44,360 bases of DNA, from positions 1 through 44,360 of the forward strand of contig PFBB01000023.1 in the NCBI GenBank assembly GCA_002773475.1. The letters run 5' to 3'. How positions within the stretch are numbered: the first letter of the stretch is position 1; each line of letters begins with the position of its first letter. The translations under genes and the position numbers were made by a program. This DNA is from Candidatus Harrisonbacteria bacterium CG10_big_fil_rev_8_21_14_0_10_44_23 (lineage in GTDB: Bacteria; Patescibacteriota; Minisyncoccia; UBA6257; 1-14-0-10-44-23). Under the pieces are notes generated by a model. That model ran no database searches. It saw only the letters and a list, made by a program, of their open reading frames with translations, and was not told the origin of the DNA. Of the stretch, positions 14,173 through 37,069 are shown in pieces.

Positions 14173-14303
14173 CCTGCCCTCTAGGGTAGATAGAATGGGT
14201 AAATAAATGCTCCATACGGGTATGGAGCATTTATTTGCAAGCGCTAGAAGTTGGCGGAGTTGTCAAATTTGGGTAAAATCATTATACTGTTGCCATTGCA
14301 GAC

Positions 14304-32230: not shown

Positions 32231-32237
32231 GAGTGTT

Positions 32238-32261
32238 AAAACAGCCCTTCGGGGCTGTTTT
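32238..32261 (+). terminator. ndk terminator
   Basis: AAAACAGCCC-TTCG-GGGCTGTTTT. Confidence 0.8.
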
Positions 32262-32319
32262 CTTGACAGACCACCGGTTTCGCCCTAGGTTTAGAGGACC
32301 AAGAAAGGAGGGCTGCGGT

Positions 32320-32619
32320 ATGCCCTTTGTAGATATTGTTTCTAGGATTGGTGACATGGACCCTCAGCTTGCCATCGCGCTTTATCGGCAGCCGGATGGC
32401 GATGTGATTCTATCTGTTGGGTTGGCGGGCCGCATGGGAGTGCTGGACTTTGAGCCTGCAGACAACTCACCGATTCTGAGTGGGCGAGAGGGGCTGGAAA
32501 CCAGATCCTCTGTGGAGTTTTGTACTAGTGGAGGAAGGAGCCCTCACACCCATCGCGCGCTCGTTGCTTTGATGGATGCTATCAAAAAGGACAATGAGGA
32601 GAGACCCATCTCTCCGTAA
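32320..32619 (+). CDS. hypothetical protein (99 aa) in a G+C-rich islet
   Basis: ATG 8 nt after AAGGAGG (32305-32311). A consensus TTGACA at 32263-32268 lies right after the ndk terminator. The ORF-track start at 32233 would run through that terminator. Line 32401-32460 has 34/60 G+C. Confidence 0.45.
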   Translation: MPFVDIVSRIGDMDPQLAIALYRQPDGDVILSVGLAGRMGVLDFEPADNSPILSGREGLETRSSVEFCTSGGRSPHTHRALVALMDAIKKDNEERPISP

Positions 32620-32673
32620 CGCTAATGCCCTGGTTGTGTACAACAACTGGGGCATTGGAGTATAATGTAGATA

Positions 32674-32805
32674 AGTCCCGTTCAGAAGATTTTCTACAAA
32701 CATCTTCACCGGGCAGGCTCAAATTGCTTGAGACCGTGGTCTCGATGCTGCGGCCGCCCACCTAGTTTTTACTAGGATTTCTATGAACGGGACTCCCGAA
32801 AGGGA
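32674..32805 (+). ncRNA. candidate structured RNA or multi-hairpin element (unknown class)
   Basis: An 11-bp closing stem AGTCCCGTTCA (32674-84) / TGAACGGGACT (32784-94) encloses hairpins GAAGAT..ATCTTC (32685-707), GAGACC..GGTCTC (32730-43) and CCTAG..CTAGG (32761-76), followed by TCCC-GAAA-GGGA. A TATAAT lies at 32661-66. The strand is assumed. Confidence 0.3.
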
Positions 32806-32815
32806 ATAAACAATA

Positions 32816-32853
32816 CCCTTACTCCATAACTCTATAGAGTTATGGAGTAAGGG
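32816..32853. repeat. 38-bp perfect palindrome upstream of the ArsR-type gene
   Basis: CCCTTACTCCATAACTCTA|TAGAGTTATGGAGTAAGGG. It ends 11 nt before the ATG at 32865. Confidence 0.9.
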
Positions 32854-32864
32854 TAGATAATTTC

Positions 32865-33146
32865 ATGGCAAAAAGTAGAGATCAATATCATCGGATGCAG
32901 AGATTCGTGCGAGGGTTTTCCAATCATCGGCGAATTGAAATTCTGTTGTATTTAAATGAGCACAAAGGGGCGTCGGTGGTTGATGTTGCAGAAGCTTTGG
33001 GCGTTAAGCTAAATACAATTTCTGCACACGTCATACGTTTAGCAAATGCGAATTTGGTATGGAAACATTCCGACGGTGTTGCCGCTAAATGCGAGTTGAG
33101 TAGGGAGGGGGAGAGTGTGGTTAAATTCCTCAAACTTTTTTTGTAG
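32865..33146 (+). CDS. ArsR/SmtB-type winged-HTH transcriptional regulator (93 aa)
   Basis: FSNHRRIEILLYLNEHKGASVVDVAEALGVKLNTISAHVIRLANANLV is a typical ArsR HTH core. Confidence 0.7.
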   Translation: MAKSRDQYHRMQRFVRGFSNHRRIEILLYLNEHKGASVVDVAEALGVKLNTISAHVIRLANANLVWKHSDGVAAKCELSREGESVVKFLKLFL

Positions 33147-33167
33147 TGTCTTTTGTGTTTTAATCTT

Positions 33168-33199
33168 CTACTCCATAACTCTATAGAGTTATGGAGTAG
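33168..33199. repeat. 32-bp perfect palindrome, second copy of the same 30-bp core
   Basis: CTACTCCATAACTCTA|TAGAGTTATGGAGTAG. The core TACTCCATAACTCTATAGAGTTATGGAGTA is identical to 32820-32849. Confidence 0.9.
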
Positions 33200-33269
33200 G
33201 GGGGGTGGAGGTTTTAAGGGATTTGTATTAGATTAGAATAGCGGCTGCGGAAATGCGGCCGTTTAGTTT

Positions 33270-37041: not shown

Positions 37042-37069
37042 TTAATTATATAATTAATTATATAATTAA
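37042..37069. repeat. perfect 28-bp palindrome made of two ATTATATAAT units at 12-bp spacing
   Basis: Units at 37045-37054 and 37057-37066. Same unit and spacing as at 408-451. Confidence 0.9.

Follow-up and report, generated by a model that had tools for sequence, protein, structure and literature searches.

Two copies of one perfect palindrome bracket a regulator gene

Why should a small regulator gene lie between two identical copies of a long perfect palindrome? The window, by which we mean the whole 44,360-nt stretch of DNA that was analysed, contains such a gene, with aspS and ndk upstream of it and lepA downstream. The source genome (G000) is of the Patescibacteria type, 94% complete, and assembled to 528 kb in 35 contigs with a G+C content of 44%. 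The same 30-bp perfect palindrome, TACTCCATAACTCTATAGAGTTATGGAGTA, is found in exact form on either side of the gene, as a first-pass annotation of the sequence had reported, and no further match occurs in the window when up to three mismatches are allowed. Against these two copies stands an expectation of zero, with no match in 100 dinucleotide-preserving shuffles. The upstream copy is longer than that annotation had it, 42 bp rather than 38 bp, and leaves 9 nt rather than 11 nt before the ATG, while the downstream copy has the 32-bp extension described and starts 21 nt past the TAG stop (33144-33146). Each arm of the upstream palindrome holds one ACTCC and one ACTCT half-site, spaced 8 bp apart (Table 1).

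Long palindromes are not confined to this locus. Genome-wide, 91 perfect palindromes have arms of at least 12 bp, compared with none in shuffled sequence, and a search for an SbcD homologue came back empty (TIGR00619; the control was positive in 13 of 14 genomes). One A+T-only family is built from ATTATATAAT units and lies at 408-451 and 37042-37069 of the window, with about eight more members on other contigs. These palindromes are perfect over as much as 46 bp and carry TATAAT on both strands in each unit, and one lies just before a tRNA gene.

Table 1. Positions of the features discussed, in window coordinates unless a contig (C) is named
Feature	Position	Strand	Description
RNA gene promoter	32637-32666	+	TGTACA-18-TATAAT
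Structured RNA	32669-32805	+	About 135 nt, single-copy; directly after ndk
Upstream operator (putative)	32814-32855	.	42-bp perfect palindrome, TACCCT...AGGGTA; 30-bp core at 32820-32849
-10-like hexamer pair TAGATAAT	32854-32861	+	Read from the sequence, between palindrome and ATG; failed the consensus scan
Regulator gene	32865-33146	+	93-aa ArsR/SmtB-fold winged-HTH protein; motif GFSNHRRIEIL, recognition helix NTISAHVIRL
Downstream operator (putative)	33168-33199	.	32-bp perfect palindrome; 30-bp core at 33169-33198
Conserved block TTTGTATTAGATTAGA	33222-33237	+	16 nt, kept in G006; between putative downstream operator and lepA
Short hairpin copies	14201-14236; C3:6384; C6:13662; C6:43758; C18:15349; C18:19434; C23:10467; C28:46300; C30:4507; C30:10882; C32:38062		Dispersed family sharing part of the outer arm of the palindrome

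The regulator has the ArsR/SmtB fold and lacks the canonical sensor sites

The description of the bracketed gene as one for a 93-aa winged-HTH protein is borne out by the open reading frame and by Pfam, in which HTH_20 matches at 27.8 bits (cut-off 27) and HTH_5/ArsR falls just short at 21.4 bits (cut-off 22). The NCBIfam ArsR/SmtB model NF033788 scores 41.7, under its cut-off of 55, and the SdpR autorepressor gives a weak NCBIfam match. An AF2 model of the protein (pLDDT 94) has the ArsR/SmtB order of elements, a1-a2-a3-aR-b1-b2-a5, and Foldseek matches it to CzrA, SmtB, CadC, HlyU and NolR at TM scores of 0.75-0.85 and a probability of 1.00. Compared with solved structures, the profile of the family finds HlyU best (3jth, 3.6e-9), with HlyU, CadC and CzrA spanning 1e-9 to 1e-5, and it also matches AspA of the Sulfolobus plasmid pNOB8 (PDB 5k5q and others, 4.6e-5).

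Judged by the sequence and an alignment of 49 family members, the alpha3 CxC metal site is absent, with no Cys in alpha3 (SVVDVAEAL). The alpha5 sensor site (Asp/His-x-His...His-x2-Glu) is likewise absent, and alpha5, GESVVKFLKLFL, has no His/Asp/Glu cluster. The sole Cys of the protein, C76, is located in the wing, and the residues invariant in the family are R13, G17, N20, H21, R23, H55 and K67. Because the canonical sensor sites are absent and the NCBIfam score falls below the cut-off, the regulator is apparently a divergent, sensor-less member of the ArsR/SmtB superfamily. Pfam, NCBIfam and the fold return winged-HTH families only, and the flanked gene encodes no HUH/Y1 (IS200/IS605-like) transposase.

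The same unit occupies the same spacer in a second genus

The closest homologue of the regulator, 57-59% identical at the protein level, belongs to a genome from another genus of the same family (G006). The locus there has the order aspS-ndk-small RNA-palindrome-gene-palindrome-lepA, as in G000. In G006 the palindromes read CTTGTCCATAACTCTATAGAGTTATGGACAAG and ATCTAGTCCATAACTCTATAGAGTTATGGACTAGAT; the downstream one lies 5 nt past the stop codon. All four palindromes of the two genomes are identical over their inner 24 bp, TCCATAACTCTATAGAGTTATGGA; Ndk of the same two genomes shares 48% identity, and elsewhere the spacers do not align. With up to three mismatches allowed, a 22-bp core of the palindrome occurs three times in G000, twice in G006 and in none of the ten other genomes of the family. 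None of these ten carries an orthologue of the regulator, the best match among them reaching E 5e-17, compared with 8e-29 for G006.

In both genera the downstream palindrome lies 70 nt before the lepA start. The conserved block between them is absent from relatives without the cassette and overlaps TAGAAT (33234-33239), a -10-like hexamer, read by eye, of a likely lepA promoter; the palindrome ends about 35 bp upstream of this hexamer.

The order aspS-ndk-RNA...lepA is kept in the family, and the regulator unit lies inside it only in G000 and G006. A comparison of ndk-lepA spacers, which the first-pass annotation had proposed as a check on its suggestion of a small mobile cassette, found neither the unit nor a solo palindrome in G002, which shares its genus with G006, or in G005 and G004. 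Since the unit is missing from the same spacer in these three genomes, it has been acquired or lost as a whole. That it occupies the orthologous site in two genera speaks against recent movement. The earlier suggestion is supported in part, by the absence of the unit from the spacer of a same-genus relative, although no movement of it is visible in this lineage.

Palindromes accompany the regulator family and change with the protein

Homologues of the regulator form 276 clusters (50% identity, E up to 1e-10). The family is patchily distributed, in 32 of 401 genomes of the phylum, and has members in records labelled Omnitrophica, Elusimicrobia and Nanoarchaeota. A long palindrome lies just before the start codon in 52 of the 81 homologues examined and at or after the stop codon in 32, whereas only 4% of background windows (9/209) hold such a palindrome. 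A first set of 66 homologues contributed 44 upstream palindromes and 24 downstream ones, with 21 loci having both; a second set of 15, from an even sample of the phylum (401 genomes), contributed eight, eight and seven. The upstream site ends at a median of 22 nt ahead of the start codon. Homologues at 25-50% identity have different palindromes in the same positions.

These sites share a design, nnATTCYnAnnTTCT-NN-AGAAnnTnRGAATnn, in which each arm contains two direct half-sites 8 bp apart, giving four in total. Most relatives have half-sites arranged as ATTCY-N3-RTTCT-NN-AGAAY-N3-RGAAT, and the G000 site, ACTCC-N3-ACTCT-AT-AGAGT-N3-GGAGT (with ATA as the first spacer), is of the same design with C replacing T. 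Of 68 copies, 36 have a self-complementary central dinucleotide (binomial p = 8e-7). Sites with an asymmetric spacer have both copies in direct orientation, and the centre-to-centre distances between the palindromes of relatives, 325-370 bp, show no helical phasing. Half-site centres lie 7-8, 15 and 23 bp apart. ArsR operators are usually spaced by one turn (about 10 bp), which these spacings fit in no obvious way, a point against reading the palindromes as operators.

Only two of the proteins have inner CTCT half-sites, and both carry S-A-H and HV(I/N)RL, not SEHIRRL. We considered the E-to-A change in the recognition helix as the determinant of the CTCT half-sites, an idea weakened by one relative (L098) that has S-A-H but TTCT; given this relative, the pairing is at most the coincidence of one lineage.

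The downstream palindrome of relatives often overlaps the last codons of the regulator, as in AAC TCT ATT CTA ATG TTC TTG AGA ACA TTA GAA TAG, which encodes NSILMFLRTLE-stop. In three relatives (L059 1880-1919, L062 1495-1532 and L045 2723-2768) the palindrome codes for a conserved C-terminus of the form ...SIL(K/M)FLRTLE plus the stop, and the same 36-46 bp are thus both protein code and a putative operator copy. The genes that follow the downstream copy are unrelated from locus to locus (LepA, CsgG, HI0933-like, PIF1 helicase, ABC transporter and others). Because of this overlap, and because the next gene in relatives is unrelated, the second site appears to belong to the regulator unit rather than to lepA.

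The arrangement recurs within G000. A second ArsR-like paralogue of 91 aa (C1:6399-6674) is bracketed by a palindrome of its own (C1:6343-6711), AACACTTAAACATT-TTTGCC-AATGTTTAAGTGTT on each side, whose asymmetric 6-nt spacer points the same way in both copies; the whole genome contains just these two. By eye, the next gene past this paralogue, on the opposite strand, resembles the C-terminus of a tyrosine recombinase. A 176-aa PaaX_M/Cas2-like regulator (C22:1715-2245), of a protein family unrelated to the ArsR type, has the same operator-gene-operator layout. It is bracketed by its own perfect palindromes (C22:1578-2321), one of 40 bp just past an upstream TATAAT and one of 60 bp that begins 17 nt after the stop.

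Because palindrome and protein co-occur and vary in step, both between genera and throughout the protein family, we consider it probable that the two palindromes are cognate duplex-DNA operators of the ArsR/HlyU-like protein encoded between them, and that they form with it one member of a family-wide module of Patescibacteria. The invariant inner part, the symmetry through the dyad and the phased direct repeats favour a symmetric protein on duplex DNA as the partner of these sites.

Further copies of the palindrome and a family of short hairpins

A search of the 528-kb assembly for more copies, as the first-pass annotation had advised, returned one. This solo copy (C23:10560-10589, or C23:10556-10595 over its longer extent) lies between lysS and serS, 305 nt before serS, and has a single central mismatch, which falls in an inner half-site. 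Two 33-nt direct repeats, TAGCTCTGGCGGGTAAATATGGAGTATT(C/T)ATTT, flank it 103 bp apart (C23:10505-10640; L003 1446-1581), each containing one outer half-site. Past the solo copy lies a member of another small palindrome family, CCGCTATGATGTATCATAGCGG, which also occurs twice on C10. We considered the solo copy as a deletion remnant, left by recombination between flanking operators in the manner of a solo LTR, and rejected this, the similarity of its flanks to those of the cassette being no higher than in shuffles.

At least 11 copies of a short, near-identical hairpin of 32-38 bp, AAATAAAT(G/A)CTCCATAC-SS-GTATGGAG(C/T)ATTTATTT, are dispersed in G000. They share 9-10 nt, TACTCCATA, with the outer arm of the operator. 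They lie 22-37 nt past stop codons, have mirrored A/G changes, and with their A- and T-tracts resemble bidirectional terminators; the G+C-rich stem and T-run of a terminator are both present. None was found in 11 related genomes. A role as DNA uptake sequence was also considered and set aside, TATGGAGTA having only 22 copies in the genome, which is too few. The solo copy and these short hairpins, which lie by unrelated genes, count against the operator reading, and three other accounts take them up.

The regulator could act mainly in trans on housekeeping genes, with the downstream copy as an operator of lepA, the solo copy as an operator of serS or a control on read-through from lysS, and autoregulation as a secondary matter. 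The constant 70-nt distance to lepA in both genera, with a conserved block in between, the third copy in the lysS-serS spacer and the position of the cassette after aspS-ndk all agree with this. Yet G006 has only the two flanking copies, and the solo copy, with its mismatch in an inner half-site, lies 305 nt from serS. The downstream copy does not cover the lepA core promoter, and in relatives it is often placed within the regulator's last codons and followed by unrelated genes. We therefore think such a role unlikely. A common target operon was looked for downstream of the cassette in relatives, and the idea was dropped, the genes there being unrelated. Of the first-pass proposal of an autoregulatory operator paired with a second operator for lepA, the first half is the best supported of the suggestions, through the co-variation of protein and palindrome, and control of lepA finds no support as a general role.

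Alternatively, the unit may be selfish or portable, similar to REP/REPIN-RAYT systems without their transposase: the winged-HTH protein would mark the palindromes, host recombination or template switching would spread or maintain them, and the solo copy and short hairpins would be the unit's offspring. RAYT genes are single-copy genes flanked by palindromes that they supposedly recognise, with short palindromes dispersed after genes (PMC3116915, PMC3337134). The locus is like them in its flanking palindromes, in the related short ones dispersed through the genome and in a largely vertical inheritance. The gain or loss of the cassette within one genus, the direct repeats around the solo copy, the G000-specific short hairpins with their 9 nt of outer arm, the patchy distribution of the family and the direct orientation of asymmetric-spacer copies would also suit such a unit, and the absence of SbcD would allow long palindromes to persist. 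On the other side, the protein is merely a 93-aa winged-HTH domain with no catalytic domain, and the arms carry half-sites of the winged-HTH type. REP/REPIN elements number tens to hundreds, compared with three long copies here, and the short hairpins share only the outer arm. The orthologous site in two genera, together with a protein divergence like that of the housekeeping neighbours, indicates vertical descent; the flanks of the solo copy have no significant similarity to those of the cassette, and the palindrome of the paralogue has no extra copies. On balance we regard a selfish unit as very unlikely. The possibility that the palindrome is a common REP-like element, named in the first-pass annotation as the result that would undo its observation, is not what we found, two of the only three long copies flanking the regulator gene.

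A third account would make the regulator and its palindromes a hairpin-prone, self-homogenising element of gene boundaries in Patescibacteria. Template switching would keep the arms of each copy complementary, and further copies would be seeded at other gene ends, here as the solo site in the lysS-serS spacer and as the G000-specific terminator-like hairpins with the operator's outer arm. Bound at such boundaries, the protein would work as a roadblock or insulator genome-wide, in a genome that has few regulators and lacks SbcCD. We give this account little credence.

A structured RNA gene precedes the regulator

Directly after ndk lies a single-copy gene for a structured RNA, whose promoter is the only good one found upstream of the regulator. 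Its structure comprises a closing stem, a long irregular hairpin whose C(G/U)UG loop is conserved, an invariant ACCCACCUAG and a CCUAGU...ACUAGG hairpin, with compensatory changes across four genera. Searched with a covariance model, 40 of 61 related genomes have a single full-length copy each, among them all 12 genomes of the family, in which it lies after ndk without exception. The RNA is independent of the regulator cassette. It has no match in Rfam, even at E 5. Neither the small SRP RNA nor the 6S RNA of Rfam was shown in G000, and it is therefore possible that this RNA is a divergent housekeeping RNA. Between ndk and the RNA promoter lies a G+C-rich stretch of about 400 nt (32233-32619) with a 128-aa open reading frame; the frame has no Pfam or NCBIfam match, and the stretch has no counterpart in G006, G002 or G005.

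A scan found no consensus promoter between 32700 and the regulator ATG. The -10-like hexamer pair read from the sequence just before the ATG (Table 1) is a possible core promoter, from which the regulator mRNA would be leaderless or nearly so.

In G005 and G006 the RNA gene ends in a terminator of its own, and in G000 the 42-bp palindrome occupies that place. The palindromes could work as hairpins of RNA or single-stranded DNA that stabilise, terminate or process the regulator mRNA, or that substitute for the RNA gene's terminator, with the protein uninvolved or binding the folded form. The predicted RNA stems are very stable, 19 bp and -31.4 kcal/mol upstream and 14 bp and -20.9 kcal/mol downstream, both with 4-nt loops. 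Palindromy also exceeds the conserved core, by 6 and 1 bp in the two G000 copies and by 3 and 5 bp in those of G006. Among bracketed relatives, 16 of 24 copies carry differences from their partner that are mirrored in the opposite arm over at least 3 bp. The short hairpins with the same outer arm resemble terminators as well. However, the plus-strand tails, GATAATTTC and GGGGGGTGG, have no T-run after either long copy, and a terminator scan flagged the upstream copy on the minus strand only, where no gene ends. The inner 24 bp do not co-vary but stay invariant, the arms carry direct repeats phased by 8 bp, and complementarity extends to the dyad, a position that cannot pair in a hairpin loop. 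Sense-strand mismatches in imperfect relatives are of the G-U type in ten cases and of the A-C type in eight, which shows no bias, and the palindrome sequence follows the paralogue. Rfam places the palindromes in no family beyond sub-threshold, generic miRNA-hairpin matches. A working hairpin is thus highly improbable to us, and the earlier suggestion of twin terminators finds no support in the long copies, given the missing plus-strand T-runs, the symmetry through the dyad and the unbiased mismatches. Terminator, RNA-hairpin and common-REP readings are all poorly supported. The perfection of each copy is nevertheless not explained by protein binding, and points to a hairpin or cruciform, or to correction of one arm by the other through template switching.

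A proposed model of negative autoregulation

For the operator reading that we prefer, the mechanism looks like ordinary self-repression. The protein would bind the four half-sites of a palindrome as a dimer or as two dimers. The upstream site separates the start codon from every possible upstream promoter, including the strong promoter of the RNA gene 200 nt away, so that protein bound there would stop its own production, by occluding a promoter or acting as a roadblock. Read-through from the RNA gene, which has no terminator of its own in G000, would meet the same site. The second site most likely tightens repression, through cooperative binding or looping across about 350 bp, and may also stop transcription from running on between the regulator gene and lepA. 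The analysis shows the fold of the protein, and it shows that protein and site occur together, are conserved and vary in concert. Binding, its stoichiometry, the position of the promoter and the role of the second site are what we infer from them. With no consensus promoter between the RNA gene and the ATG, the way in which the site acts on transcription is a guess.

Relation to known regulators and significance

SmtB, CzrA, CadC and ArsR have operators of the 12-2-12 inverted-repeat type, and SmtB is reported to bind one site as two dimers. These autoregulated repressors have the same fold as the regulator, a similar size of about 100 aa and an inverted repeat at their own promoter. Unlike them, the regulator described here has no alpha3 CxC or alpha5 metal site and controls no resistance gene, and its site is a perfect palindrome of 30-42 bp with four phased half-sites and a second identical site at or after the stop. 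The non-metal members HlyU, NolR, SdpR, PagR and YgaV likewise have no metal site; HlyU and the SqrR/BigR types sense through a Cys pair, whereas the regulator has a single Cys (C76). We know of no description of bracketing operators for HlyU, NolR, SdpR, PagR or YgaV.

In the lac system, operator O3 lies at the 3' end of lacI, where it is an auxiliary repressor site that allows looping and roadblock-type autoregulation. There, too, a repressor has a binding site within its own coding sequence or at the end of it, although the lac repressor is of another protein family and its main operator controls other genes, whereas both sites here bracket the regulator alone. AspA of pNOB8 is an ArsR-like winged-HTH protein that binds a palindrome before its own operon and can spread along DNA. 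It is, however, a partition protein with ParA and ParB partners, and none are encoded beside the regulator gene. Our literature search turned up no account of ArsR genes bracketed by palindromes in the CPR. The locus is probably a variant of the autoregulated ArsR-type repressor, from which it differs in the long, perfect palindrome of four half-sites and in the second copy at the end of the gene.

To our knowledge, there is almost no experimental knowledge of transcription control in the uncultured, ultra-small Patescibacteria. The locus provides a regulator-site pair that can be tested directly, a 93-aa protein and a 30-bp duplex. To these it adds a natural specificity variant (CTCT for TTCT half-sites) and, within the one genome, a paralogue whose site differs. 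How long palindromes originate and persist is also a question on which these copies bear, since they are perfect over up to 52 bp in relatives and, at another locus of G000, a genome without SbcD, over 60 bp. The operator-gene-operator design is common to the PaaX-like regulator and may be general in compact genomes with pervasive read-through, where it may insulate or tighten autoregulation.
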